Assembly (NCBI GenBank): GCA_028711825.1
Contig: JAQTRM010000002.1
Span: 1 to 41,626 of the forward strand
Source: Candidatus Omnitrophota bacterium
GTDB lineage: Bacteria; Omnitrophota; Gorgyraeia; Gygaellales; Profunditerraquicolaceae
Reading direction: 5' to 3'
DNA: 41,626 nt
Position numbers and translations under genes: made by a program. The notes beneath the pieces are model-generated. The model did not search any database, had not been told where the DNA came from, and worked only from the letters and a program-made list of their open reading frames with translations. How positions within the stretch are numbered: position 1 is the stretch's first letter; each line of letters opens with the position of its first letter. Positions 3,972-38,165 of the stretch are shown piece after piece.

Positions 3972-3990
3972 CCTGATTTATCACACATAG

Positions 3991-4012
3991 ATATAGTAAA
4001 ATTTTACTATAT
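3991..4012. promoter_or_regulatory. Perfect 22-bp palindrome in the promoter region of the KS operon (candidate operator, possibly PadR)
   Basis: atatagtaaaattttactatat is identical to its reverse complement. It lies 20 bp upstream of the first operon gene (start 3971) and about 95 bp downstream of padR. Confidence 0.4.
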
Positions 4013-4022
4013 AATTCTAATC

Positions 4023-4036
4023 AAGACCATGGTCTT
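4023..4036. promoter_or_regulatory. Perfect 14-bp palindrome (operator or padR terminator stem)
   Basis: aagaccatggtctt is self-complementary. It sits between padR and the downstream operon. No U-tract follows it on the minus strand. Confidence 0.3.
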
Positions 4037-4056
4037 TGTCAAGTGAATTAAGCTAG

Positions 4057-4119
4057 TTATAAGCCATAAGCGAGGAGTTTATAACTTAAAACTTACCGCT
4101 TATATCTTAAATCTTCTTA
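4057..4119. repeat. Heptad-periodic element, ATAAG/CTTA type (copy 2), overlapping the padR stop codon
   Basis: ttataag ccataag cgaggag tttataa, then five in-phase CTTNNNN heptads (cttaaaa cttaccg cttatat cttaaat cttctta). It shares ccataag, ttataag and the 11-mer cttaaaactta with copy 1. Possible stems: gttataa (4056-4062) with ttataac (4080-4086), and ataagcg (4066-4072) with cgcttat (4097-4103). Confidence 0.6.
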
Positions 4120-7435: not shown

Positions 7436-7679
7436 TTTCAGCTTTCAGCTATCAGTCGTCAGCCTTTAGCTAAAGCCGAGAAGCAAAAAACGCGTAACTG
7501 GTAATTAGTAACTCGTAATTTAGAGCAAAAGCTTAAAGAATGCGCCTTAAGCCTAAGGTTAGGAACAATTACGCTTTCAGAAGTATATGGTTTTGTTTTT
7601 GGTTTAAATCCTAATTAATTACGAGTTACTATTTACGTTAATTCTGTTTTTGCTGAAGGCTGATAGCTGACGGCTGAAA
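7436..7679. repeat. Nested heptad-periodic inverted-repeat element, TCAGC/GTAAC type (copy A)
   Basis: Outer left arm, 5 heptads: tttcagc tttcagc tatcagt cgtcagc ctttagc (7436-7470). Inner left arm, 4 heptads: gtaactg gtaatta gtaactc gtaattt (7494-7521). Unique core of about 95 bp. Inner right arm: taattac gagttac tatttac (7616-7636). Outer right arm, 4 heptads: gctgaag gctgata gctgacg gctgaaa (7652-7679). The right arms are reverse complements of the left-arm heptad types. Confidence 0.8.
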
Positions 7680-12623: not shown

Positions 12624-13181
12624 CTACTGCCGCATCAACGCCAGGGCTTCGGAACGCGTTTTTTCGTTTTCCTTAAAAATGCCGCGCACCGCGCTGGTAA
12701 CCGTCATCGTTCCCGGTTTTTTCACCCCGCGCATCGACATACAAAGGTGCTCCGCTTCGATCACCACCATTACCCCTAAGGGTTTTAATTTACTCATCAC
12801 GATGTCGGCGATCTGGGTAGTCAGCCTTTCCTGAACCTGCGGGCGGCGGGCCAGGATATCCACCACCCTGACCAGCTTGCTTAAACCGGTCACCCGGCCG
12901 TTTTTAGGTATATAAGCGATGCTTGCCTTGCCCAGAAAGGGAAGCAGGTGATGCTCGCAAACCGAATACAAAGGTATCCCGCGCAGCAGCACTATCTCAT
13001 GATGCTTCTGCTCCAGAACAACCTCCAGCTCTTTCTCCGGGTTCTGGCCGATCCCCGAGAATATTTCCTCGCACATCTCGGCGTAACGGCGCGGGGTCTG
13101 CAATAAATCTTTTCTGCCGGGGTCCTCTCCGATCGCTTCGAGTATCTGACGGACCGCCCTCTCAATCTTAGCTTTATTCAT
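12624..13181 (-). CDS. folE: GTP cyclohydrolase I
   Basis: 185 aa. [25 protein letters not shown] and HLCMSMRGV are canonical FolE motifs. Confidence 0.95.
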
Positions 13182-13267
13182 CGCTGTCCTTTCAACGCAA
13201 AATTTATCAATTGGTTTTATTATCTAACGAAAGAACTCTTTCTGCAACAGGTTTTTGGTTAAATACA

Positions 13268-13574
13268 AATCAGCTATCAGCTATCAGCTTTCAGCAAAAG
13301 CAAAACCCTAAAGATGCCGTAACCAGTAACTCGTAACTGGTAACTGGTAACTGGTAATTAAATCAAAGGCATAAAGCGGAAAAAACAATCTTGGGAGAAA
13401 ATGAATTATTTGTGACTTTTGGACACAGCGAATTTATCCTTAAATGATTTTTGCTTTTAATTACGAGTTACTGATTACTGGTTACGAGTTACGTCTACTT
13501 TATTTCTGGCTTTGCCTTTGTTTTAGCTGATAGCTGAAGACTGACAGCTGAAGACTGACAGCTGAGGGCTGAAA
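13268..13574. repeat. Nested heptad-periodic inverted-repeat element, TCAGC/GTAAC type (copy B, most complete)
   Basis: Outer left arm: aatcagc tatcagc tatcagc tttcagc (13268-13295). Inner left arm, 6 heptads: gtaacca gtaactc gtaactg gtaactg gtaactg gtaatta (13319-13360). Core of about 97 bp. Inner right arm, 5 heptads: taattac gagttac tgattac tggttac gagttac (13458-13492). Outer right arm, 7 heptads: gctgata gctgaag actgaca gctgaag actgaca gctgagg gctgaaa (13526-13574). The element ends 1 nt from the mnmE stop codon. Confidence 0.85.
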
Positions 13575-13575
13575 A

Positions 13576-14958
13576 TCATTTCCCGATACAGAAATCCGCG
13601 AAGATCTTATCCAGAAGTTCCGCGGAAAAGTCTTTACCCAGGATATTATCCAGGTAGGCACAGGCATCTTTCAAATCCTGAGTGATAAGCTCCAGAGAAG
13701 AGTCTCCCCTCAACATCCTGTCCGCCTCCTCAAGGAGACCGCGGGCATCCCGCAAAGCATGGATATGTCTAAGGTTACTTAATAAGATATGTTCCGGGTT
13801 CAGCGCTCTTCCCCGGCAGGCAAAATCGAAAATCGCCTCTTCCAGCAGCTCCAAATTCCTTCCGGTCCTGGCGGCAAGCTCTACGACCCTGGGGAAAAAT
13901 CCGGAAATCTCTTTCTTATCAATCTGCGCTTTTAGATCAATCTTGTTGATTACCGCAATAACATTCCTGTTTTTTAACTCCCGGACTAACTCCTTATCCC
14001 GGAGTCCGATTCTTCTGCCGGCATCGAACAAAAGAATCACCAGGTCCGCGGAAGCGATGCGCTCACGGGAACGCTTTACCGCTTTTTTTTCGATTAAATT
14101 ACGCGGCTTAAGGATTCCGGCGGTATCCACCAGCCTCACCGGGATCCCCCTGACATCAACCGCTTCCTCGATCGTATCCCGGGTTGTCCCGGCGACAGGA
14201 GTAACAATAGAACGTTCTTTTTTTAATAACGCGTTAAGAAGGGAAGATTTACCGACGTTCGGTTTCCCGCAAATGACCGCCTGGAGCCCCTCGCGCAGGA
14301 TGCGTCCGCCGAATGATCCTTCGAGGAGAATATCCATCTGCCGGATGGCGGCATGCAGCCCGGATGAAATTTTTTCCGCATCGTATCCCCGGATATCCTC
14401 TTCCGGAAAATCAATGTTCGCTTCCAGAATTACCAGGATTTCCATTACCCCTTCCCGGATCTTGCCAATCCTGCGGGATAATCCCCCTTCCAGCTGTCCC
14501 AGGCTTACTTTAAGCGCGGATGCGGTCTTGGCGCGGATAAGATCGATCACCGCTTCCGCCTGGGCAAGATCGATGCGCCCGTTCAAAAACGCCCGCCGGG
14601 TGAATTCTCCCGGACCGGCAAGGCGACAGCCGTGTTGAACCGTCAGATCGAGAATGCGGCGTAAAGATAATAGTCCACCATGGCAATTTATTTCGACAAT
14701 ATCCTGGCGGGTATAAGATTTCGGACCCCGCATCACCGTAAGCAAAACCTCATCCACCATCTTACCATTATCGGTAATCCTGCCGTAATGCACGGTATGG
14801 CTTTTAAAACCCGACGGTTTTCCTTTTTCCGAAGAAACGAAGATCTTATCCGCCACCGTCAGGGCCTTTTCTCCGCTCAAACGGACAATCCCGATACCAC
14901 CCTCCCCCTGAGGAGTAGAAATCGCGGCAATCGTATCTTTCAAATCATCCTTAAACAT
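13576..14958 (-). CDS. mnmE: tRNA uridine-5-carboxymethylaminomethyl modification GTPase MnmE
   Basis: 460 aa. N-terminal IAAISTPQGEGGIGIVRLSG; G1 GKPNVGKSSLLNAL; G3 DTAG; NKIDL; C-terminal FCIGK tetrapeptide. Confidence 0.95.
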   Translation of the reverse strand: MFKDDLKDTIAAISTPQGEGGIGIVRLSGEKALTVADKIFVSSEKGKPSGFKSHTVHYGRITDNGKMVDEVLLTVMRGPKSYTRQDIVEINCHGGLLSLRRILDLTVQHGCRLAGPGEFTRRAFLNGRIDLAQAEAVIDLIRAKTASALKVSLGQLEGGLSRRIGKIREGVMEILVILEANIDFPEEDIRGYDAEKISSGLHAAIRQMDILLEGSFGGRILREGLQAVICGKPNVGKSSLLNALLKKERSIVTPVAGTTRDTIEEAVDVRGIPVRLVDTAGILKPRNLIEKKAVKRSRERIASADLVILLFDAGRRIGLRDKELVRELKNRNVIAVINKIDLKAQIDKKEISGFFPRVVELAARTGRNLELLEEAIFDFACRGRALNPEHILLSNLRHIHALRDARGLLEEADRMLRGDSSLELITQDLKDACAYLDNILGKDFSAELLDKIFADFCIGK

Positions 14959-27677: not shown

Positions 27678-28508
27678 CTAAATCTTGCCGCTTTCTTCAA
27701 AACTTAAGATGTTGTCCAGGCGGAAAGTGCGCCTTTCCCGTTCAGGATAGCAGTCCCCGATCAAATACCAGTATTTATCGATCCGCTTGATCTGCCGGGG
27801 AAGAACCTCCCTCCAGGAAATTTCCCCGCTCCTGCTGGAAAGATACTTGAATTTTAAAATTTCCTGCGTCCGGATATGCGCCTGAATCAACCCGGAATTC
27901 CCCGGTTCCCCTTGCGCGGAAAAAGCGCCTTCAAAAGAAAAAAGAGTTAAAAAATCCGCAAAGGAAAAAATCCCTTTGCCGCGGCAAACTTCTTCCAGCC
28001 GGCAAAATACCTCCCGCGCCATCTCCGCGTCGGAAAAAGCGCGGTGCGACTGCGCCGATTTTATTCCCAGGGTCTGAGCCACAAACCAAAGCGCATAACG
28101 CGGCAGGCCGGGGAGCATCTTCCTGGCCATTGTCAGGATATCCAAAACCGAAAGATCCCGGATCGGCGGATAACCGGAAAGGACCAGTTCATTATTCAAA
28201 AACCCCAGATCGAATTCCGCGTTATAGAAACAAAGACAGCTACCTTTTATAAAATCCAGGAATTTCGGTATTACCGTTTCGATTGAGGGCGCGTTTTTAA
28301 GCATCTCCGGGGTAATCTTATTCACCGCGAAAGCCCCGGGCGAAACCGCCCTCCCCGAATTCACCAAAACGTCGAATTCGGAAATTCTCTCCTGCCCCCT
28401 GAACTTAATCCCGGACAGTTCCACGATACGGTCTCCGGAGGCATAAGACAACCCCGTGGTTTCGGTATCGAATATAACTAATTCTACTTCGTCGATATTC
28501 TTATCCAT
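27678..28508 (-). CDS. DEDDh 3'-5' exonuclease (DnaQ/epsilon-like) fused to a C-terminal WYL domain
   Basis: Exo I VIFDTETTGL; Exo II FYNAEFDLGFL; Exo III HRAFSDAEMA. The C-terminus ILKFKYLSSRSGEISWREVLPRQIKRIDKYWYLIGDCYPERERRTFRLDNI is a WYL-domain signature. I moved the start from the ORF-track 28592 to the ATG at 28508 (MDKNIDEV...), which leaves only an 8-nt overlap with the upstream gene. Confidence 0.8.
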   Translation of the reverse strand: MDKNIDEVELVIFDTETTGLSYASGDRIVELSGIKFRGQERISEFDVLVNSGRAVSPGAFAVNKITPEMLKNAPSIETVIPKFLDFIKGSCLCFYNAEFDLGFLNNELVLSGYPPIRDLSVLDILTMARKMLPGLPRYALWFVAQTLGIKSAQSHRAFSDAEMAREVFCRLEEVCRGKGIFSFADFLTLFSFEGAFSAQGEPGNSGLIQAHIRTQEILKFKYLSSRSGEISWREVLPRQIKRIDKYWYLIGDCYPERERRTFRLDNILSFEESGKI

Positions 28509-29397
28509 TGCGGGTTGCGATATAGGCGGACACCAACCGCTGCGGATGATAAGAAAGCTTTGTCTTGCGCAAATTCTCCAGCCCCGAATCATCCATAATA
28601 TTAATATACCGGTAACCCTCTAAAGCCCGGCTAAACTGACGGAAAATAAACTGCGCCAGCCCTTTGATTGAAATATCCGTAATCTCATAAAGCAGGCAAA
28701 AGGTATCCTTATTAAGCCGGCAGCCGAAGCTGAATGCCTTGATTTCCCCGGACACCTTAACAACAATTCCTTCTAAACCCAGATTTTTGTAGCTCCCGAA
28801 GGCTCTCTGCAGCACGCTCCTGCTATCCTGGAGCATGCCGCGATAGACCTCGTCTCCGCACTTCCCCTTGCGTTCTGCGGCCCAGGAATCAAAAAGTTCC
28901 AGGCAATCCTTACGGTCCGCGAGAGTTAATTTCCTCCATTCATAATCAAAATGCTTTATAAAATAATTACAGGAGGCGCGCTGCGGTTTAAACCGGTTGC
29001 CTTTAAGCTCCGCCAGGTCTTGGCGCGCGCAAAGATAATCCGGGTCTTTTTCACGGCAGCGATAACCTAAAGTACGATAATATTCCAGGTCTTCGGCGGG
29101 AATATTTTCGATGCGCGAAATATCGCGGTTTTTATTAAATTTGTCCATTTCCCGGAAAATGCGCCGCACGGCATCCGGGGAAGGCTTTGTGCCCAATGGA
29201 GGCAGATATAAAAAACATCCCAGGCGGTCCCGAAAGAATACACAAAGCGTCCTTTCGACAAAACACCATTGGATTCGATAAAACGGGCGCCAGATATAAA
29301 TATTAACAAAAGAAAAAGCCGACAGCTCATGCCGGCGGGAATAAAGATACCGGTCAAATAAACCCCGGTCTTTCAAAAACAGGCTATTCAGTTTCAT
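28501..29397 (-). CDS. Stand-alone DUF2156 protein (MprF/LysX C-terminal lysyl-phosphatidylglycerol synthase-like, GNAT-type aminoacyl-tRNA transferase fold)
   Basis: 298 aa. N-terminus YLYSRRHELSAFSFVNIYIWRPFYRIQW...LCVFF and the later GEIKAFSFGCRLNKDTFCLLYEITD...GLAQFIFRQF match my recollection of PF09924. Not searched. Confidence 0.65.
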   Translation of the reverse strand: MKLNSLFLKDRGLFDRYLYSRRHELSAFSFVNIYIWRPFYRIQWCFVERTLCVFFRDRLGCFLYLPPLGTKPSPDAVRRIFREMDKFNKNRDISRIENIPAEDLEYYRTLGYRCREKDPDYLCARQDLAELKGNRFKPQRASCNYFIKHFDYEWRKLTLADRKDCLELFDSWAAERKGKCGDEVYRGMLQDSRSVLQRAFGSYKNLGLEGIVVKVSGEIKAFSFGCRLNKDTFCLLYEITDISIKGLAQFIFRQFSRALEGYRYINIMDDSGLENLRKTKLSYHPQRLVSAYIATRNG

Positions 29398-30210: not shown

Positions 30211-30340
30211 CTTATGCTCCTTTTAGCAATAATCTAGGAATAAGTAAAGGCAGAGGCAAAGAAGAAACTATCCGTTTATCACAATCCCCAATTCTATCTA
30301 GCCCCGGGATACCCTAACTTATAATTAATATTAATGTTAC

Positions 30341-30377
30341 AACCCTAAAACAAATCTCCCCGCGCTAAAGCACGGGG
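30341..30377 (-). terminator. Rho-independent terminator-like hairpin
   Basis: The minus strand reads CCCCGUGC-UUUA-GCGCGGGG (an 8-bp stem with one G-U pair, 30377-30358), followed by AGAUUUGUUUU. Confidence 0.4.
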
Positions 30378-30389
30378 CTTCTTTCCTTG

Positions 30390-30422
30390 GATTGTCCGCC
30401 ACTGAAACTTCGGCGGACAATC
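30390..30422. other. Perfect 11-bp stem hairpin in the tRNA-proximal non-coding region
   Basis: gattgtccgcc (30390-30400), loop actgaaacttc, then ggcggacaatc (30412-30422). Confidence 0.5.
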
Positions 30423-30481
30423 GTCACGCTTTCCGATTAAAATCATAACATCCAAAAGGACAAAACTCAAGGCAAATCAAC

Positions 30482-30516
30482 CTTCAGCTATCGGCTTTCA
30501 GCCTTCAGCTATCAGC
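30482..30516. repeat. Left outer arm of a truncated TCAGC-type heptad element (copy C)
   Basis: Five in-phase heptads: cttcagc tatcggc tttcagc cttcagc tatcagc. They are followed by an A-rich spacer (ccaaaggcaaa) and a degenerate gtaatagttaatg. There is no matching GCTGANN right arm anywhere up to the tRNA genes. Confidence 0.7.
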
Positions 30517-30711
30517 TAACCCAAAGGCAAATATCAGAAGGTAATAGTTAATGCGGAAAAATCAATTCCCGAATACCCCGGTCTAAAGACCGAAGTTTGT
30601 TTCTAAATTGTGCTTCAATTATGCTTGGGCATCCTTAAGTGAAATCAAAGGAATGCTCAAGCCGCTTCCATCCCCGGCGCTCTAAGGGCGGGGAATTAAG
30701 GCGGCGAACGC

Positions 30712-30748
30712 ATAAACCAAAAGCGCCACGGCTAACCGTGACGCTTCT
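30712..30748 (-). terminator. Rho-independent terminator downstream of tRNA-Asp
   Basis: The minus strand reads AGCGUCACGG-UUAG-CCGUGGCGCU (a 10-bp stem with one G-U pair) followed by UUUGGUUUAU. It starts 5 nt after the tRNA CCA end. Confidence 0.5.
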
Positions 30749-30752
30749 TGAA

Positions 30753-31053: not shown

Positions 31054-31503
31054 TTACATCTTCCCTAGAACAATCAAAGTAAAGACCATCACAAATAAAG
31101 CTACAGTCTCTACAACACCTACGACCGCCAGGTAGTTTCCAAACCCCTTACCTGTTTCCCCCATGGCGTCACAGGCGCAAGCCGAACATTTACCCTGAAA
31201 TAAGGCGGAAGCCCCTATAGCTAAACCGGCAAAAGCGCCAACCCCCCACAGATACTGCCCGGCATTGGCAAGCTCAATCATCTTAGTCGCGACGATATTA
31301 CCGTAAATCGTCTGGGTCAAAGGCGCTCCCACTAAAGCAACCAGCAAAAATGAAGCGCTTTTATTCTGGCTGAAATTCTTTTTCCACGCCCCTATGGCGG
31401 CCATACCCGCTATCCCCGTTCCCGCGGCGGAACCCAGAGCGGAAAGTCCAAGAACTAGCTCTAAACCTAAATCCTTAAACTGCACCAAAACTCCTCCGTC
31501 CAT
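31054..31503 (-). CDS. ntpK: V-type ATP synthase subunit K (proteolipid, 4-TM duplicated c subunit)
   Basis: I moved the start to the ATG at 31503 (MDGGVLVQFKDLG...), 1 nt after the subunit I stop. The ORF-track start at 31560 would overlap subunit I by 56 nt. Gly/Ala-rich TM hairpins; PLTQTIYG, ALFQGK and VVETVALF. Confidence 0.85.
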   Translation of the reverse strand: MDGGVLVQFKDLGLELVLGLSALGSAAGTGIAGMAAIGAWKKNFSQNKSASFLLVALVGAPLTQTIYGNIVATKMIELANAGQYLWGVGAFAGLAIGASALFQGKCSACACDAMGETGKGFGNYLAVVGVVETVALFVMVFTLIVLGKM

Positions 31504-31504
31504 T

Positions 31505-33286
31505 TTAAACTCCTTCTTTCTTGCAAAACGGTTTATACGAAAACCCAATCCAGGAAACACCAGCGTGGCTACAAAACTCTAACACATTGAGCCTTACCCC
31601 GTGAACCAAGATTGACATCGGGCCCAGGATAAGATTAAGCATATGGCCGCAGACAATAACAAACGCGGCTATAACTATTGTCAGGATATCCCCTTTTTTA
31701 ACTATACCTGCTGCCATAGAATTAAAGGCGTCGGCGATCGCCACGGTTGCCAGCCCTACCGCAAAAAGGCGGATATACGAAACTACGTCGGTAAAGTTGT
31801 TTACCAGGCTTAAGGCTATTGTGCCCAGGCCCGCCCCCACCGCCTTGAAGATATTCTTCTGCGGACTACTGAAAAATAAAACCAGCAGCAACCCGGATAT
31901 GATCAGCCATGAACCGGATGACGGGAATACGGCGTCTAAGAGCAGGGTATTCGCAAGGAAAAATACCGCCCAAAGTATAAGAATCCACCCGACATCCGCC
32001 AGTGCGGACAACGAAGGGGCTTTCCGCATCGCCTTCCATCCATGAGCCAGGGAAAGATGTAAGGCCCCGATAAAAAAACATAAGCTTTGGAGAAAAGTCG
32101 CATTATTCAGCTTCGGCAGCAAAGGCTTTAACCCCATACCATGCAACCACTCCTGCCCAAAGAAAGTGCCGCTCAATAATCCCCATATCATAGCGCAAAA
32201 GCTCAACACATAAAAGAGAAAAAACACGCTCTTATCTTTTACTTTGCCCCCCATCTTCTTATATACCCATAAAGTCAACAGAAAATAAATCAACCCATAC
32301 CCGGCATCCCCTATGAGTATCCCGAAAAATATACTAAAAAATATGATAAATAAAGGGCTGATGTCGATCTCGGAATATCCCGGCACCAGCTCCAGGAGCT
32401 TCAAGACGGGTTTTATAAGCGAAACCCAGGCGGGATTGCGCAACAATGTCGGCACGGCATCATTCTCCCCGGGCTCTAATGTCAGGATCCCCCATCCGTT
32501 TTTTTTCGCCCGCCCGACCAATAAGTTTTCCGCATCTACGGGAATATATCCTTTTAAATAGGCAATCTCTTCTGTCCGTCCCATCCCTTTTAAAACCGAA
32601 TAAAACTCTTTTTCTTTTAACAAAAGGTTCTCTGCAGCAGTAAGATCATTGGAATAAACCGCGCAGGAAGATATTTCTTTCTTTATGCTCTGCATGATCC
32701 TGGTATCTTCACTAAGCCTCTTTTTCATGCCGGATAAAGACAGTTTAGGAAGTTCCAACTCCTTAAAACCTGTCTCGATACCCCCCATGCTTACAACCAG
32801 GCAATTTACCAGAACGCCTTGAGAAGAAATCTTTTTTATTACGATATCCGGAGGCAAGAGGGCAATCTTATCTTTAGATATCTGGTAAAGCTTAACTTGG
32901 ACATTATTGTCCTGTAAAGCCCTTAGCGCATCGGGATCAAAATCTCCCCAGGGGCTCCATAAATCTATCCAGCTGTGCAAAGTTACCGAATACTCTTTTA
33001 ACTGATCATGCCTTTTCTGCAAATCGATGACGTGGCGGCAGAAAACGTCTAAATCCCCCATCTGACCGGTCTTACCTTTTCCCGGTTCTACCGCCGCGGA
33101 TGCGGATAAAATCGTCCTGACCTGTTCGATCAGGGCAATCTTATCGTTGATCGCGCTAAGTTCGACTCCGGATGGGACATTATCATGTTCGACATGCACC
33201 ATCCCCAAAGAACCTAAATCCTCCAAAGCCTCCCGATCCTGCCCCTGACGCATAAGCAGAAATATTTTTTTCATCCCGACAATCAT
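31505..33286 (-). CDS. ntpI: V-type ATP synthase subunit I (a subunit, stator/ion channel)
   Basis: 593 aa. Soluble N-terminal half with coiled-coil hairpin, then a C-terminal polytopic domain with SYIRLFAVGLA (conserved Arg helix) and GHMLN...VHGVRLNVLEF. Confidence 0.85.
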   Translation of the reverse strand: MIVGMKKIFLLMRQGQDREALEDLGSLGMVHVEHDNVPSGVELSAINDKIALIEQVRTILSASAAVEPGKGKTGQMGDLDVFCRHVIDLQKRHDQLKEYSVTLHSWIDLWSPWGDFDPDALRALQDNNVQVKLYQISKDKIALLPPDIVIKKISSQGVLVNCLVVSMGGIETGFKELELPKLSLSGMKKRLSEDTRIMQSIKKEISSCAVYSNDLTAAENLLLKEKEFYSVLKGMGRTEEIAYLKGYIPVDAENLLVGRAKKNGWGILTLEPGENDAVPTLLRNPAWVSLIKPVLKLLELVPGYSEIDISPLFIIFFSIFFGILIGDAGYGLIYFLLTLWVYKKMGGKVKDKSVFFLFYVLSFCAMIWGLLSGTFFGQEWLHGMGLKPLLPKLNNATFLQSLCFFIGALHLSLAHGWKAMRKAPSLSALADVGWILILWAVFFLANTLLLDAVFPSSGSWLIISGLLLVLFFSSPQKNIFKAVGAGLGTIALSLVNNFTDVVSYIRLFAVGLATVAIADAFNSMAAGIVKKGDILTIVIAAFVIVCGHMLNLILGPMSILVHGVRLNVLEFCSHAGVSWIGFSYKPFCKKEGV

Positions 33287-33900
33287 GACATAGCCCCTTC
33301 TAAAACCATTTCTTCTATTTTCTTCTTGGCGATCTTACTGCGCCCCACGGCGTTAGCCATTTGATCTCCGATATAAATCTTGATCAGGCGGATATTCTCC
33401 TCCGCCTGAGGGATCTTTACTTTTTCAAATAAATTTACCCTTTGGGTAGTAACTCTCAATTCCCGGCGCAAAACATCCAGCCCCTGCCGAAGAGTATCAA
33501 TTTTTTTATGTAAACCGGCTAATTCTCGCAAAGACTTTATCGCGCTGTCCACCCATAAAGGAAAAAGAAAAAGATCGTAATCTTTTTCGGAAAACTCCAG
33601 GGCGTCAAACACCGGAACATCAACTCCGGCGATATTCTTAAAATGTGTAACCGTTTTATCCGGCTTGACGAAAGAATGGAAATCCTCCTGCGCTTCAGAT
33701 AACAGACCCGCCCAAACCAAAACCCCCTGCCTTTTACTCTCTAAAGACTGCTCGGCATTCTGCAAAGCCGTATTTTGCTGCAGAATTTCCAACTGTAATT
33801 GCTGTTTTTTTAGCTGTAAGGTAGGCAGATAACGCAGGAACTGTTTCAAAGAGTCGCGCTGTCTCTTCAACTCTCCTTTGGTAAATTTAATTTTCGCCAT
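33283..33900 (-). CDS. ntpD: V-type ATP synthase subunit D (central stalk)
   Basis: 205 aa. N-terminus KFTKGELKRQRDSLKQFLRYLPTLQLKKQQL and C-terminus RRELRVTTQRVNLFEKVKIPQAEENIRLIKIYIGDQ are typical subunit D coiled-coil termini. Confidence 0.85.
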   Translation of the reverse strand: MAKIKFTKGELKRQRDSLKQFLRYLPTLQLKKQQLQLEILQQNTALQNAEQSLESKRQGVLVWAGLLSEAQEDFHSFVKPDKTVTHFKNIAGVDVPVFDALEFSEKDYDLFLFPLWVDSAIKSLRELAGLHKKIDTLRQGLDVLRRELRVTTQRVNLFEKVKIPQAEENIRLIKIYIGDQMANAVGRSKIAKKKIEEMVLEGAMS

Positions 33901-33992
33901 ATCGATTTTCCGGAACGGTTATTTTTTAGGCCAGCCGTGTTAAAGCCGGTGTCATCGGAACTATTTTTACGGTTGCCGGAGGCAACCTGGCT

Positions 33993-35285
33993 TTAACGCG
34001 GCCAGAATTCCTGAATAACCGAAAGTTTGATCCCGGTCTCTTCCGGGGTAAAACAATCCGCCAGTATCCGCCAGCCCAGATCCAGGGCCTTTTCCAGAGG
34101 GATATTAACCTTAAGGGACATCATATTAGTCTCAAAAAGCGCCCCGTATTTTAAAAGTTTTTCGTCCCAGGCGCTCATCTGGAATCCCATGGACTGCTTC
34201 TCCAGGGTCTCGCGATAACTGGCAAACAGCTGGATCATCGTATCCATGATCGTGCGATGATCGGCCCGGGTCTTGCCGTTTACCTGCTGCTTGAGGCGGC
34301 TCAAAGAACCGAAAGGCTCAATCACCCCGGACTTCAGGTAAAACTGCCCCTCAGTAATATATCCGGTGTTATCCGGGACCGGATGCGTCACGTCATCCCC
34401 CGGCATGGTGGTGGCGGAAAGTATCGTGATGGAACCCGCACCTTCAAAATCTACCGCTTTCTCGTAGCGCGCGGCAAGCTGGCTGTAAAGATCTCCCGGA
34501 TAACCGCGGTTGGAAGGAACCTGCTCCATGGTAATAGCGATCTCTTTGAGGGAATCCGCGAAATTGGTCATATCGGTCAGAAGAACCAGGACCCGCTTGC
34601 CGGATAAGGCGAAATTTTCGGCCACCGCCAGACTGATATCCGGCACCAGCAGGCATTCCACGGTGGGGTCGGAAGCGGTATGCATAAAAAATATGCAGCG
34701 TGAAAGCGCGCCGTGAGCATTTAATGTTTCACGGAAAAAAAGGTAGTCGTCGTGTTTCAGGCCCATCCCGCCGACAATGATAATATCGACTTCAGCCTGG
34801 ATAGCGATCCGCGCCAGCAGTTCATTATAAGGCTCCCCGGCAATAGAAAAGATCGGCAGTTTCTGCGACTCTACCAGCGAGTTAAAAACATCGATCATCG
34901 GGATCCCGGTACGGATAATCTTTCCCGGCACAATCCTTTTAACGGGATTTACCGACGGAGAACCGATAGCGGTAAGCCCTTCGGAAAGAAGCGGGCCGTG
35001 ATCCATGGGAACACCGCTCCCGTTAAATATACGCCCCAGGAGATTATCCCCGGTAGCCACGCGCATCGGATGCCCCAGGAACCTTACCCGGTCTCCGGTA
35101 GCGATTCCGCGGGTGCCCGCGAAAACCTGCAGGGATATTTTTTTACCGTCGATACGGATAACCTGCGCCAGGGAAACCCCGCGGCGGGTGGTAATCTGGG
35201 CGATATCGGAATAACCTACTCCTTCGGCCTCTACGGTAATTACATCTCCGGCGATCTGAATAATATTCGTATAAGATTTTTGCAT
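33993..35285 (-). CDS. ntpB: V-type ATP synthase subunit B (non-catalytic)
   Basis: 430 aa. GQKLPIFS-type degenerate P-loop region ([16 protein letters not shown]), [61 protein letters not shown]. Confidence 0.92.
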
Positions 35286-35287
35286 CT

Positions 35288-37030
35288 TTATTTCTCTTTC
35301 TTAAACCTTTTGCTTCCCAAAAGGTTTGAAATTTGTTCTTCGATGTTTTTAAATTCCGGGGCGCCGAAAGCGGCGGAGTTCCAAGTCCGCATCAACTGCC
35401 GCAGGCTTTGAAAAAAATGCAGCGCCGCCGCCTTATCCCCGAGTTCATAATCCGCATCCAGCACCCCGCGGATGAAATCCAGAATATAAACCTGTCTTTC
35501 TTTAGCGGTAGCCTCGTCCACCGGATCAAAGGCATTCTGCTGCAAATACACGAAATCGAAAAAATCGCTTTTTAAATATTCGGTATAATCTTTTAAAGAA
35601 GTGCCTTCTTCCCCGATAACTTTCATCATCTGGGATATTTCGTTTCCGCGGCGCAATAAAGCGTGCAGCCTTTCCCGGTCTTCAGGATCGACAAAACCTT
35701 CATACTTGCTCCAGCTGATCAAAGGGTCGATCGCCGGGTATTTACGCGCGTCGGAACGTTCGCGGGAGAGCCCGTGGAAAGCCCCCACTACTTTAAGGGT
35801 TGCCTGGGTAACCGGCTCTTCGAAATTCCCGCCCGCCGGGCTTACCGCCCCGCCGATGGTAACCGATCCGGTCCCCCCCGAGCGCAGCCGGACCACCCCG
35901 GCGCGTTCATAAAAAGAAGCAATACGAGACTCAAGGTAAGCCGGAAATGCTTCTTCCCCCGGAATCTCCTCAAGCCTCCCGCTCATCTCACGCATCGCCT
36001 GCGCCCAGCGCGAGGTAGAATCCGCCAGCAACAATACATTTAAACCCATCTGGCGGTAATATTCGGCAATGGTAACCGCAGTATAAACGCTGGATTCACG
36101 CGCGGCAACCGGCATTGAACTGGTGTTACAGATAATCACCGTGCGGTCCATCAGCGGTTTTTTCGTCCGCGGATCGATCAACCCGGGAAAGGTCTTCAAT
36201 GTTTCAACAACCTCGCCCGCGCGTTCCCCGCAGGCGGCGATAATCACGATATCCACTTCGGCGTGACGGCTGATAAGCTGCTGCAGGACGGTCTTGCCTG
36301 CCCCGAAAGGCCCCGGGGTACAATAAGTCCCTCCGCGGTTCACCGGAAACAAAGAATCGATCAGGCGCATCTTGGTCACCAAAGGCTCCGTAGGCCTCAA
36401 TTTTTCCGCGTAAGCCCCGATAGAAATCTTCACCGGCCAAAGCTGCTGCATGCAAACATCGTGCGCCGCTCCGGAAGAATCCTTAAGGCGCGCGACCGGC
36501 TGTTTAAGATTATATTTTCCCGCGGGCGCGATAGTTTCAACCTCCAGGACTCCGGAAAGCGCAAAAGGCGCCATGATATAATGTTTGAATATCTTTTCCG
36601 GGACAAAACCCAGCCAGCTTCCCGGCATCACCTTATCCCCAGGCTTGGCCAAAGGAGTGAAATCCCATTGCGCCTCATCCGGCAAAGCCTCAAGATATAC
36701 CCCGCGCTTAAGAAAAAACCCGCATTTCTCGGCCAGCGCCGGAAGAGGATTCTGGAGCCCGTCAAAAATCTGGCCCAGCAGCCCGGGCCCGAGCTCCACC
36801 GAAAGCAGCTCTCCGGTAAACTCCACGGCATCCCCGGCTCTTAACCCCTGCGTGCTTTCGTAAACCTGCATCTCCGCCTGGTCGCCGCGCACGCGGATAA
36901 CTTCAGCCTTCAGGCGTTCCGCGCCGCAAATAATATAAGCCACTTCATTTTGAATAATCTGCCCGGCAACCTGCGCGGTCACCATGTTGGCGTTAACCTT
37001 GATTACTTTTCCCGTCCTGGTATTTTCCAT
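35288..37030 (-). CDS. ntpA: V-type ATP synthase subunit A (catalytic)
   Basis: 580 aa. Walker [67 protein letters not shown]. Confidence 0.95.
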
Positions 37031-37032
37031 CG

Positions 37033-37563
37033 TTAATTCGCGATTACCCCGTTCAATAAATATTCTTTATCCGCTTTTTGTATTTTCTCCCAACGCTCAA
37101 GGATCATAAGCTTCAACGCGTAAAGGGCAAGATGCTTAAAGTCGAAATAATGCCCGCAGCTTAAATTTTCCAGGAAATCCCATCTCGCCTGATCCAGGAT
37201 CTTTTCCGCCTCCAGGACCGAGGCGCTCCGGTAAGCGTTCATCGCCACATGGCTGATCTCCGCCTGAGGAGCTTCGGGAAGGCGCAGGAACTTCAAAGGA
37301 TCCGTTTTTTTGCGCCCCGCCCTGGCCCTTGCCAACTCATTCCGGAGCGTAATTTCAAAGGCCGCCCATTCTTTCAAAACCGCCGGAAGGCGCGGGGACA
37401 AAAAATAATCTTTCTCCTCTCCCAGCCCGGACAGAATCTTATATTCCTTCTCCGGAATCAAATCCCTGCAACGTGCATAGAACTCCGCCAATCCGAAGGG
37501 CGGTTTGGCGGAAAAACTCAAAAATGGCAGGCTGGAAATCAAATATACGTAATAAGAAGGCAT
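37033..37563 (-). CDS. DUF2764 family protein (occupies the subunit C position in Bacteroidetes/Chlamydia-type V-ATPase operons)
   Basis: 176 aa. N-terminus YYVYLISSLPFLSF...F matches the DUF2764 opening motif as I recall it. Its position between E and A is the characteristic context. Confidence 0.65.
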   Translation of the reverse strand: MPSYYVYLISSLPFLSFSAKPPFGLAEFYARCRDLIPEKEYKILSGLGEEKDYFLSPRLPAVLKEWAAFEITLRNELARARAGRKKTDPLKFLRLPEAPQAEISHVAMNAYRSASVLEAEKILDQARWDFLENLSCGHYFDFKHLALYALKLMILERWEKIQKADKEYLLNGVIAN

Positions 37564-38165
37564 TACTTATTATCCAATATTTTTTTTAATTCCGGACGCA
37601 GGGAACCGGAGAGATATTCGCTTAAGGCCTCTGAGCTGAAATCAAACATTGACTTTCCTGAATCGAAACTGATCGTAAAACCGCTCTCCATCCCCTCGGA
37701 GGAACTTAAAGTAATCCCCTTTTTGGTCTCCTGAACCAGCTGCTTTAGAAATCCCGCCTCCAGCTTTTCCTTATCAAGTGGATTCAGCGCGACGATAACC
37801 TGGGACCCCAGGGACAGCGGGGCATTCTTGATCAAGGCGGCGATAATCCCCGCCAGCTCCTGGCTGGTCAAAACCTGCTTCAATTCCATCCTGACTAATC
37901 TTTCAAGCATCCCCGCAATCTCCTGCCTCAAGCTTATCAAAAGGTCGCGTCCGGATTGTTTTAACGCGGCGAGGGTGGATTCTTCATGCCTGGCGGATTG
38001 TTCTTTGGCCTCCGCGATAATTTTCTCCGCTTTGCTTTTGGCCTCCGCGATCAGCTTCGACGCTTTGTTTTCAGCCTCGGACTTTATCTGCGCGGCCTGC
38101 TCCTCGGCTTTCTGCACACCCTCCTGCCGGATCTTTGCGATCAAATCATTAATTTCCTGCGCCAT
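37563..38165 (-). CDS. ntpE: V-type ATP synthase subunit E (peripheral stalk)
   Basis: 200 aa. The N-terminal ~90 aa form an A/E/K-rich helix (LIAKIRQEGVQKAEEQAAQIKSEAENKASKLIAEAKSKAEKIIAEAKEQ), followed by a globular C-terminal domain. First gene of the operon. Confidence 0.8.
   Translation of the reverse strand: MAQEINDLIAKIRQEGVQKAEEQAAQIKSEAENKASKLIAEAKSKAEKIIAEAKEQSARHEESTLAALKQSGRDLLISLRQEIAGMLERLVRMELKQVLTSQELAGIIAALIKNAPLSLGSQVIVALNPLDKEKLEAGFLKQLVQETKKGITLSSSEGMESGFTISFDSGKSMFDFSSEALSEYLSGSLRPELKKILDNK

Follow-up and report, generated by a model that had tools for sequence, protein, structure and literature searches.

Nested heptad palindromes between genes of Candidatus Omnitrophota: probable ORF-less relatives of cassettes resembling 23S rRNA intervening sequences

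REP/BIME elements are GC-rich palindromic units of 20–40 nt that bear a conserved GTAG and are associated with RAYT, and the heptamer repeats of cyanobacteria known as STRR were reportedly described by Mazel in 1990. Heptad arrays on record include TAACTGA (PMC4679880), GGGAATC of Xanthomonas, for which occasional inverted pairs were noted (PMC4692102), and promoter-proximal heptamers of Nostoc (bioRxiv 10.1101/2022.06.06.494920). Intervening sequences (IVSs) of 23S rRNA that carry an S23p/four-helix-bundle ORF are known from Coxiella, Leptospira and Brucella, and IVS stems are cut by RNase III (PMC4990558). In the Coxiella IVS a gene of this family occurs together with a 28-bp terminal stem that RNase III cuts, and with a GACAGAT heptamer present in two to three copies depending on the strain (PMC4990558). 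The original prediction, which knew of no described family with the architecture analyzed here, was too strong in this respect, since heptanucleotide SSRs/STRR (PMC4679880, PMC4692102) and the heptamer-bearing Coxiella IVS (PMC4990558) had already been described.

The element under study, hereafter E2 (13268–13574), lies in a stretch of 41,626 nt from a Candidatus Omnitrophota contig (hereafter the window), the MnmE of which finds its best non-self matches at 70% identity, all in named Omnitrophota. MAGs of the species are GCA_028693405.1 and GCA_029004275.1, and the organism occurs in landfill or digester samples. A 307-bp nested heptad palindrome had been proposed to fill the 394-nt gap between mnmE and folE; the palindrome proved real, with exactly the part counts claimed, and both flanking genes were confirmed by Pfam. 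Over positions 13269–13573 the arrangement is (TCAGCYN)4, A-rich spacer, (GTAAYNN)6, a 97-nt core, (NNRTTAC)5, T-rich spacer and (GCTGANN)7. The features of the locus are:

12624–13181, minus strand, folE (Pfam)
13219–13247, minus strand, candidate folE promoter: −35 TTGCAG (13242–13247), 17-nt spacer, −10 GATAAT (13219–13224)
13269–13295, no strand assigned, E2 left outer array: four TCAGCYN units (ATCAGCT three times, TTCAGC)
13296–13318, no strand assigned, E2 A-rich spacer: AAAAGCAAAACC...; other copies repeat the motif AAAGCAAAA / AAAGGCAAA
13319–13360, no strand assigned, E2 left inner array: six GTAAYNN units (GTAAC/GTAAT), the last being GTAATTA
13361–13457, no strand assigned, E2 core: unique, 97 nt, without a credible ORF or an Rfam family
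13458–13492, no strand assigned, E2 right inner array: five NNRTTAC units (GTTAC/ATTAC), the first being TAATTAC
13493–13524, no strand assigned, E2 T-rich spacer, complementing A-rich motifs of the left half
13525–13573, no strand assigned, E2 right outer array: seven GCTGANN/ACTGACA units, with one 14-nt unit present three times
13576–14958, minus strand, mnmE (Pfam)

The folE promoter is a candidate put forward solely from its conservation in L260, L261 and L262, which are relatives without E2; the consensus scanner missed it. The heptads far exceed chance: TCAGCNNTCAGC with up to one mismatch was found 23 times against 1.5 expected, a number reached by 0 of 100 shuffles, and GTAACNNGTAAC 15 times against 0.68 expected. 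Heptad pairs were 15–20 times commoner than in shuffles, and the window holds eight arrays of period 7, compared with 0–1 for periods 5, 6, 8 and 9 and 0–1 in shuffled sequence. As in the IVSs, terminal inverted repeats able to form a long stem are present, the inner arms matching over 37 nt with 84% complementarity and the outer arms over 20 nt with 85%, 14 nt of which are fully complementary. The folding z-score of E2 is −9.35 as RNA and −6.4 as DNA.

The same element was found at the same locus in ENA, JGI and NCBI assemblies of different samples (L006, L007, L009, L010, L012, L001 and L220), and its presence in at least six independent assemblies rules out an assembly artefact. Many short-read contigs end within E2. 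Two further copies with the same layout had been announced for the window, at 7436–7679 and 30482–30642. The former, E1, indeed shows the full layout; the latter, E3, comprises the left half only and, having no right arms, is a truncated half copy. Hairpins of a third heptad type, (NNNTAAG)n/(CTTANNN)n, were missing from the earlier list. The further elements of the window, E1 and E3 included, are:

2005–2056, no strand assigned, third heptad hairpin type (NNNTAAG)n/(CTTANNN)n: 19-bp stem, in the gap 1986–2081
4050–4115, no strand assigned, third heptad hairpin type (TAAGC)n/(CTTANNN)n, gap 3972–4106
7436–7679, no strand assigned, E1, second full copy: outer arrays 7436–7470 and 7652–7679, inner arrays 7494–7521 and 7616–7636, core 7522–7615
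30477–30554, no strand assigned, E3, half copy: outer array 30477–30518, spacer, two degenerate inner heptads 30541–30554, followed by an E2-like core start

The hairpin at 2005–2056 differs between strains by a 14-nt indel. E1 is flanked by a ChlI-like and a hypothetical gene.

At least ten loci carry homologous cores within unrelated flanks; ten element-carrying loci show a tetranucleotide correlation to the window above 0.9. The copies share homologous non-heptad segments at unrelated loci, and the similarity between copies is limited to the element and never reaches into the 1-kb flanks. The cores of L183 and L240 are homologous over their full length, the two loci matching at 72% over 278 nt in inverted orientation; L151 and L169 match at 84% over 175 nt, and E1 matches L140, a different locus of a sister species, at 81% over 189 nt. 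To these two cores that of E2 shows partial homology, most of it near the start of the E2 core. Copies have been inserted into gaps between transcription units, where they begin 1–20 nt past the stop codon on the upstream side and stop just short of the promoter on the downstream side. In syntenic relatives the mnmE-folE gap measures 177–243 nt and contains no heptad arrays. At the position of E1, L260 and L261 have an empty site with sharp boundaries, whereas L262 has a 22-nt GC hairpin and strain L006 a different heptad hairpin of type GTAAG/CTTAC. Alignment of filled and empty sites revealed no target-site duplication, no transposase or RHH gene was found in the window, and no RAYT was found there either; with neither target-site duplication nor transposase seen, no known mechanism of movement can be assigned to the elements, which counts against their being mobile cassettes. 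No similar DNA was found in plasmids or phages, and six matches to the two-tier pattern in viral contigs were discarded as chance, most of them lying in long coding-like sequence.

Arms like those of the inner tier were found around genes. The arms GTAACNN...NNGTTAC flank a gene for a 123-aa four-helix-bundle protein (TIGR02436/PF05635, "23S rRNA IVS protein") in all seven of the related loci, which represent seven distinct loci of the protein clade (L178, L266, L271, L272, L283, L284 and L285) on other Omnitrophota and related contigs. In each, GTAACNN arrays lie upstream and NNGTTAC arrays downstream of the gene. The arms of these cassettes and the inner arms of E1 and E2 share heptad, polarity (GTAAC first) and junctions: the GTAATTAA junction of the E2 left inner array also precedes the ATG of the gene in L284 and L285, and the AAATTAC junction of the right inner array recurs after the gene stop, as TAA-ATTAC in L178, L283 and L284. 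The core of about 97 nt in E1 and E2 occupies the position of the cassette gene. In L178 the order is (TCAGCNN)4-(GTAACNN)5-ORF-(NNGTTAC)5, and the ORF has an in-frame stop; this is the only locus with the outer TCAGC tier beside the gene, and on one side only. A universal pairing of TCAGC and GTAAC arrays was considered and dropped, GTAA-type arrays being present at only about 5 of 120 TCAGC loci. Many metagenome matches to TCAGC are single arrays with a C-to-T variant.

The association extends to other heptads, which bracket the gene family in Acidobacteriota, Planctomycetota, Verrucomicrobiota, cyanobacteria and Xanthomonas. Loci fetched by heptad pattern only contained the same gene family with other heptads in L076 (Blastocatellia), L119, L038 (Phycisphaerae), L023 (Verrucomicrobiota), L185 and L158. 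Heptad arrays adjoin all eight cyanobacterial plasmid genes of the family that were fetched, and in the Nostoc punctiforme plasmid pNPUN02 two of the six arrays in 50 kb flank the single four-helix-bundle gene. Xanthomonas campestris has a GGGAATC array that extends over the start codon of XCC0516 (2GSC, the closest solved structure). In an automatic tally 14 of 18 genes had arrays upstream and 14 of 18 had them downstream, versus 2.6% of control windows; seven of the 18 genes had been ascertained through heptads, the unbiased subset consisting of 11 loci plus three read by eye. The family is large, with 20,471 cluster representatives at E ≤ 0.001, and to our knowledge it has no assigned function outside diversity-generating retroelements.

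Combined, these results make it probable that E2, E1 and the half copy E3 are ORF-less relatives of an IVS-like cassette and form a lineage-specific family of dispersed palindromic insertions in Candidatus Omnitrophota. The family would stand to the gene cassettes as MITEs stand to transposons, its members having arisen from cassettes by deletion or else relying on a protein supplied in trans. The likeness to IVSs lies in selfish insertion, in long terminal inverted repeats forming a stem, in the PF05635/TIGR02436 cargo of the ORF-bearing relatives, in strain-variable tandem heptamers next to the ORF (compare the 7- and 14-nt indels of E2 with the GACAGAT repeats of Coxiella) and in an ORF that is often decaying, as in L178. 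By contrast to IVSs, E1 and E2 lie between protein-coding genes rather than in 23S rRNA helices 25 or 45 (the window contains no rRNA), they have no ORF, their arms are arrays of 3–8 heptads in two nested tiers, and E2-type elements have many copies per genome. Coding potential in E1 and E2 amounted to spurious ORFs of 26–55 aa, and the four-helix-bundle HMM had no match anywhere in the window. Against the cassette reading, the cores of E1 and E2 contain no recognisable ORF remnant, and the gene was not found in about 130 kb of sequence from this organism.

With MITEs, REPINs and BIMEs the E2 family shares short, non-coding, dispersed, extragenic palindromes, a mosaic modular build that includes half copies, a tendency to break short-read assemblies and the capacity to form 3'-end RNA hairpins; terminal inverted repeats, small size and many dispersed copies are likewise features of MITEs. 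It differs in having neither target-site duplications nor a known transposase or RAYT partner, the ORF-bearing relatives encoding a four-helix-bundle protein and no known transposase. Its arms are microsatellite arrays of AT-rich heptads, not unique terminal inverted repeats or GC-rich REP units with GTAG. In their tandem 7-nt units, conserved core of 5–6 nt, almost exclusively intergenic location and length polymorphism, the arrays resemble heptanucleotide LSSRs/STRR. These, however, are described as direct arrays and not as arms of an inserted element, whereas E2-type arrays form nested palindromic mosaics around homologous unique cores; nor is a link to a gene family reported for LSSRs/STRR in the literature searched, whereas the E2 arms match the flanks of four-helix-bundle genes.

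The arrays could also be heptanucleotide microsatellites grown in place by replication slippage, that is, neutral local hairpins with no kinship to cassettes and no mobility. Such an origin, which we hold to be unlikely, would fit the way in which E2 changes: clean indels of 7 and 14 nt separate the strains, and one 14-nt unit of the right outer array is missing from the other strains. Among long SSRs, moreover, the heptanucleotide class is the commonest in many bacteria, with slippage as its proposed cause (Mrazek 2007, as cited in PMC4679880). Many unrelated heptads occur across many phyla, and the variable positions of the two arms of E2 were mirrored no better than in permutations. Slippage does not account for non-heptad cores and spacers that are homologous across unrelated loci and species, for empty sites with sharp boundaries in relatives, for junctions identical to those of gene cassettes or for the enrichment of arrays beside four-helix-bundle genes. 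Polarity is also fixed, with TCAGC first in 22 cases versus 5 and GTAAC first in every copy. Besides gaining or losing units of 7 or 14 nt, copies change through clusters of core substitutions and through exchange of the entire element. Between two haplotypes the E2 core diverges by about 25%, compared with 0.25% in the flanks, and 84 differences fall in about 330 nt of E2 versus about 50 over the other 20 kb; no donor copy for the divergent haplotype was found among the loci compared. Stop codons in all frames were entertained as a unifying property of the heptads and hold for the five Omnitrophota types, but the idea was dropped because heptads of other phyla, such as CGGGACA, do not fit.

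A second alternative, in our estimate quite unlikely, takes the arrays for protein-binding iterons on double-stranded DNA that organise the boundaries of transcription units through an omega-like RHH repressor or a nucleoid or partition protein, the palindrome reflecting dyad-symmetric binding and not a hairpin. The core of the heptad is conserved over some 100 units whose pairing partners are not co-ordered, arm polarity is fixed, unpaired single arrays exist (CTACT in L140 and L175), and three heptads make 21 bp, which would correspond to two helical turns. The omega operators of inc18 plasmids likewise consist of contiguous 7-bp units in direct and inverted orientation. The specific suggestion of an omega-like heptad operator nevertheless failed the tests of consensus and position: the consensus from 100 units, TCAGCYN, does not fit WATCACW, since the base ahead of TCAGC is A in just 40% of units and omega sites have C where these have G. 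E2 arrays are chromosomal and multi-copy and do not overlap promoters, ending about 7–50 nt upstream of candidate −35 hexamers in no fixed phase, and no small RHH/HTH gene is linked to arrays in the window. More generally, the free variation in unit number between strains and arms, and the lack of elements in close relatives whose promoters are conserved, speak against iterons. The E2 arrays may still be read by a heptad-specific protein, the candidate being the four-helix-bundle protein and not an RHH repressor.

It is similarly improbable that E2 is kept, whatever its origin, as a host-selected bidirectional terminator/insulator or REP/BIME-like 3'-end stabiliser separating mnmE from folE. 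E2 does span the interval from stop codon to promoter in a gap with no other terminator, its stem is very stable (RNA minimum free energy −104.8 kcal/mol) and its inner hairpin sits between A-rich and T-rich tracts. An intrinsic terminator, with a GC-rich stem followed by a U tract, was present in the cores of L151, L169 and L181, each holding a perfect GC hairpin between A and T runs, but not in E1 or E2, where a scan detected no canonical promoter or terminator above shuffles; the outer stem of E2 has T runs before it and A runs after it, the reverse of a terminator. Besides, E1 lies between two divergent, conserved promoter regions where termination is not needed, relatives do without the element, ordinary terminators are used elsewhere in the genome, and sequence turnover is extreme. 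That the element is a conserved, structured non-coding RNA with a sequence-specific function, be it a riboswitch, an sRNA or a processing signal, is highly improbable despite the strong folding z-score: no Rfam family reached gathering thresholds, permissive E-values yielding only sub-threshold matches to plant miRNA hairpins, covariation was absent (term −0.12), RNA stability and G-U content showed no bias between sense and antisense strands, the E2 core is oriented to its genes opposite to those of L183 and L240, and relatives lack the element. The covariation check proposed for an RNA structure returned a single compensatory double change, broken in the recombinant L009.

Of the two readings initially offered, that of a structural or mobile hairpin came closer. 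A dispersed, inserted, ORF-less palindrome with ORF-bearing relatives in the 23S rRNA IVS gene family agrees with it; the results for covariation, mirrored positions and sense-strand bias lend it no support. E2 may be transcribed together with mnmE, the gap being too short to hold a terminator apart from the element. Its arms would then form a long imperfect duplex, which, by analogy with the 23S rRNA IVSs carrying the same gene family, RNase III might cut. The cut would form the 3' end of mnmE and shield folE, for which a conserved candidate promoter of its own is present. With identical units the stem could pair in many registers, and slippage on either arm would therefore be tolerated.

The arms of E2 link bacterial 7-bp repeats to selfish 23S rRNA intervening sequences. 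A broader reading, tentative and at present doubtful, is that heptad arrays are the cognate nucleic-acid sites of pentameric four-helix-bundle (S23p/Avd-like) proteins and that the two jointly make up a widespread, unrecognised class of selfish cassettes, which insert between genes or into rRNA and are neutralised at the RNA level. The 23S rRNA IVSs would be the known special case, and many orphan heptamers (STRR, GGGAATC, TAACTGA, E1/E2) would be ORF-less copies or relics. Arrays of about 3–7 units would match one five-subunit ring. The heptamer repeats of cyanobacteria (1990) and of the genome-wide survey (2007), the four-helix-bundle family and the origin of rRNA IVSs may be one problem. 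In practical terms, short-read assemblies of Omnitrophota and other MAGs break at such elements, which, as hotspots of strain-level variation, are usable for strain typing. Cassettes were also found within core operons, at ilvB/ilvN, hisB/hisH, accB/accC, cas6/cas4 and cas10/cmr3, and at such insertions annotation pipelines give only "four helix bundle protein".

The 394-nt gap between mnmE and folE is taken up by E2, a palindrome of tandem 7-bp units (heptads), and the five-part layout described in the original prediction is present in the sequence as stated.

Features of E2 and its flanking genes
12624-13181, minus strand, folE, Pfam-confirmed
13269-13295, left outer array, four TCAGC heptads
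13319-13360, left inner array, six GTAAC/GTAAT heptads
13361-13457, core, 97 nt
13458-13492, right inner array, five GTTAC/ATTAC heptads
13525-13573, right outer array, seven GCTGA/ACTGA heptads
13576-14958, minus strand, mnmE, Pfam-confirmed

A repeat finder placed the complementarity of the arms at 84% over 37 nt (inner) and 85% over 20 nt (outer), and folding of the region gave z = -9.35 for RNA and -6.4 for DNA. In the window, TCAGCNNTCAGC was matched 23 times at ≤1 mismatch against 1.5 expected, and GTAACNNGTAAC 15 times against 0.68; a period scan returned eight arrays at period 7 and 0-1 at periods 5, 6, 8 and 9. The five-part layout is common to E2 and E1, the copy predicted at 7436-7679. 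By contrast, what had been taken for a full copy at 30482-30642 (E3) is a truncated half: beyond its left outer array it keeps just two degenerate inner heptads and the opening bases of a core resembling that of E2. Heptad hairpins of a third type, (NNNTAAG)n/(CTTANNN)n, lie at 2005-2056 and 4050-4115. Most other inter-operon gaps of this organism are filled by further heptad hairpin types, (NNGTAAG)n/(CTTANNN)n, and a direct AGTAGNN array; such hairpins also occur at fetched locus L263 (12493-12584 and 14046-14133), and the gap orthologous to 1986-2081 in relative L260 also has a CTTANNN array, with a 14-nt indel between strains.

The exact MnmE and FolE proteins were recovered on NCBI, ENA, JGI and Logan contigs from different samples, several of which cross the gap and carry the same element. 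An assembly artefact is ruled out, as these independent assemblies span the gap; many short contigs terminate within E2, the expected behaviour of a repeat. Between strains with identical flanking proteins, every E2 array showed clean 7- and 14-nt indels, and two core haplotypes about 25% divergent were observed. The window and L006, a strain of the same organism, differ at about 50 positions over 20 kb, versus 84 inside E2 alone, and at the E1 site of L006 a GTAAG-type hairpin, (NNGTAAG)3...(CTTANNN)4, replaces E1 outright between identical flanks. The divergent core segments (window 13361-13440, L006 9740-9817) lie in a background 99.7% identical, and in the L006 haplotype the changes create a 6-bp inverted repeat, CAGGAT...ATCCTG, as template-switch mutagenesis in a quasi-palindrome could do.

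The closest non-self homologues of MnmE are 70% identical, and those named are all Candidatus Omnitrophota. When metagenomes were scanned for three TCAGC heptads and then two GTAAY heptads, at least 120 loci emerged where less than one was expected. Among the matches listed, 10 loci with the tetranucleotide signature of the window (correlation r > 0.9) bear the element at different loci. Similarity between copies ends at the element edges, with none in 1-kb flanks; since within the element it takes in unique segments, cores sort into types.

Core types
E2 (partly, mainly the core start), L183 and L240, the last two matching each other throughout
E1, L140 and L175
L151, L169 and L181, with A and T runs on either side of a perfect GC hairpin in the core

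The cores of E1 and L140 share 81% identity, L140 being at a different locus in a sister species. Additional heptad types, CTACTNN and GTGAACT, occur as modules, some without a partner, indicating a mosaic build. tRNA genes adjoin two copies, L169 (about 65 nt away) and E3 (tRNA-Asp). The 542-nt gap that holds E3 (30211-30752) also contains a canonical terminator behind tRNA-Asp, together with a strong hairpin at 30390-30422, gattgtccgcc...ggcggacaatc, a region with no Rfam match.

Gene order is retained in three relatives (MnmE 68-70% identity), whose mnmE-folE gaps of 177-243 nt contain no heptads. The motif TTGCAG-17 nt-GATAAT, kept in these gaps and located just downstream of E2 in the window, is by its conservation a candidate folE promoter; a consensus promoter scanner did not call it. 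At the E1 position, relatives L260 and L261 present an empty site, ...AATCTAACGGGTTTTTA/GT/AAAATAACTTGCTTTTT..., and L262 a 22-nt GC hairpin. No target-site duplication was visible on comparing filled and empty sites at E1. Elements start 1-20 nt past the stop codon of the gene upstream and stop a little short of candidate -35 hexamers; ordinary terminators are in use elsewhere in this genome.

Two functions had been proposed, a structural or mobile hairpin and a heptad operator. The element fits no Rfam family and holds no ORF, and sense and antisense fold equally well, with no strand preference. The covariation that the hairpin proposal called for was essentially absent from the allele alignment, where the only compensatory change, GTAAC/GTTAC to GTAAT/ATTAC, does not hold in recombinant L009. 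Each heptad has two variable positions, and these show no mirroring from one arm to the other, which implies that the arms evolve independently and pair via the conserved core only; core orientation relative to genes varies among copies. The consensus heptads, TCAGCYN and GTAAYNN, do not match the omega-type operator WATCACW, and the arrays do not overlap promoters.

Heptanucleotide repeats are the commonest long SSRs in bacteria (PMC4679880); the known arrays STRR, TAACTGA (PMC4679880) and GGGAATC (PMC4692102) are viewed in the literature as direct repeats of unknown function. A one-genome-per-species scan for four TCAGCNN heptads found at least 120 loci against about one expected, those among the matches listed belonging to Acidobacteriota, Chloroflexota, Planctomycetota, Verrucomicrobiota, Nitrospirota, Omnitrophota, Cyanobacteriota and others. 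Among these matches many other heptads were present, and about one quarter of the arrays not used for selection were matched, no more than 300 nt away, by an inverted array of the same unit. Neutral inverted duplication would produce equal polarities; among the matches listed (L020-L259), TCAGC-first palindromes numbered 22 and GCTGA-first 5, and polarity is therefore not random. Palindromes of other heptads tend to be richer in G than in C on the 5' arm.

One metagenome match, L178, reads (TCAGCNN)4-(GTAACNN)5-ORF-(NNGTTAC)5-ATG of the next gene. Its ORF, with an in-frame stop, encodes a 123-aa four-helix-bundle protein of TIGR02436/PF05635, "23S rRNA intervening sequence protein", a family weakly similar to Avd. 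All homologues looked up were preceded by GTAACNN arrays and followed by NNGTTAC arrays, and each lay between normally adjacent genes. The family HMM also detected the gene in loci fetched only for heptads, where arrays bracket it every time.

Cassettes (gene plus heptad arms)
L266, between two epimerase genes
L271, between hisB and hisH
L272, between DeoR and RND pump genes
L283, between ilvB and ilvN
L284, between glycosyltransferase and acyltransferase genes
L285, between fn3 protein and RHS toxin genes
Blastocatellia MAG, heptad-fetched, (TCAGCNN)4-ORF-(GCTGANN)4
Phycisphaerae, heptad-fetched, GTGGGTN/CAACCNN around the gene
Verrucomicrobiota, heptad-fetched, TAATCNN/GATTACG around the gene

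The junction GTAATTAA precedes the start codon (L284, L285) and AAATTAC follows the stop codon (L178, L283, L284); the same two junctions delimit the E2, L183 and L240 cores. In an automatic tally of 18 genes, 7 of them ascertained through heptads, 14 had upstream arrays, 14 downstream arrays and 11 inverted pairs, the rate in control windows being 2.6%; for the 11 unbiased genes the figures were 8 upstream and 9 downstream. Three loci added later had arrays on both sides as judged by eye. A tblastn search of 72,556 plasmids matched almost only cyanobacteria, and all eight plasmid genes fetched had arrays next to the ORF; 50 kb of Nostoc punctiforme pNPUN02 contain six arrays, two of which flank the only family member there. 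Among solved structures the closest is Xanthomonas campestris XCC0516 (five chains deposited), and in the published GGGAATC table repeat 15 overlaps the XCC0516 start codon, 6 nt from bccP, without comment by the authors (PMC4692102). Genes of this family lie inside otherwise contiguous operons (cyanobacterial plasmids L275, L278 and L279; L271, L283; XCC0516), the pattern expected of selfish insertion. They interrupt cas10/cmr3, cas6/cas4 (two genera), hisB/hisH, ilvB/ilvN and bccP/XCC0515, annotated just as 'four helix bundle protein' or 'S23 ribosomal protein'.

The Coxiella intervening sequence (IVS), a selfish element 428 nt long, carries an ORF from this family, a 28-bp terminal stem cut by RNase III, and GACAGAT heptamers upstream of the ORF in two or three copies by strain (PMC4990558). 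The best reading makes E2 a relative, without an ORF, of the heptad-armed four-helix-bundle cassette: it is dispersed, inserted and hypervariable, and shares arms and junctions with the cassettes. It may derive from or depend on them, the four-helix-bundle protein being a putative heptad-binding factor; the HMM found no family gene in about 130 kb of sequence from this organism. E2 would be co-transcribed with mnmE and, by analogy with Coxiella, its transcript might undergo RNase III-type processing.

Another dispersed repeat, GC-rich and containing cgctcgttttgccccagcgtggcaaaacttcgctcgggtcggctgcgtcgctc, was found at L263 (15168-15564 and 19977-20175) and L265 (10643-10864); it sits in two gaps, one copy having an internal segment, about 240 nt long, missing from another strain. 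The palindrome atatagtaaaattttactatat (window 3990-4030), in the gap between a PadR-family gene and a 92-aa ORF and kept in L260 and L261, is probably a PadR operator. The minus strand carries all but one of the window's 43 genes (41 protein-coding and two tRNA), including an RNase T and WYL domain protein at 27678-28592 and a V/A-type ATPase operon at 31054-38165, and GC skew is negative throughout.
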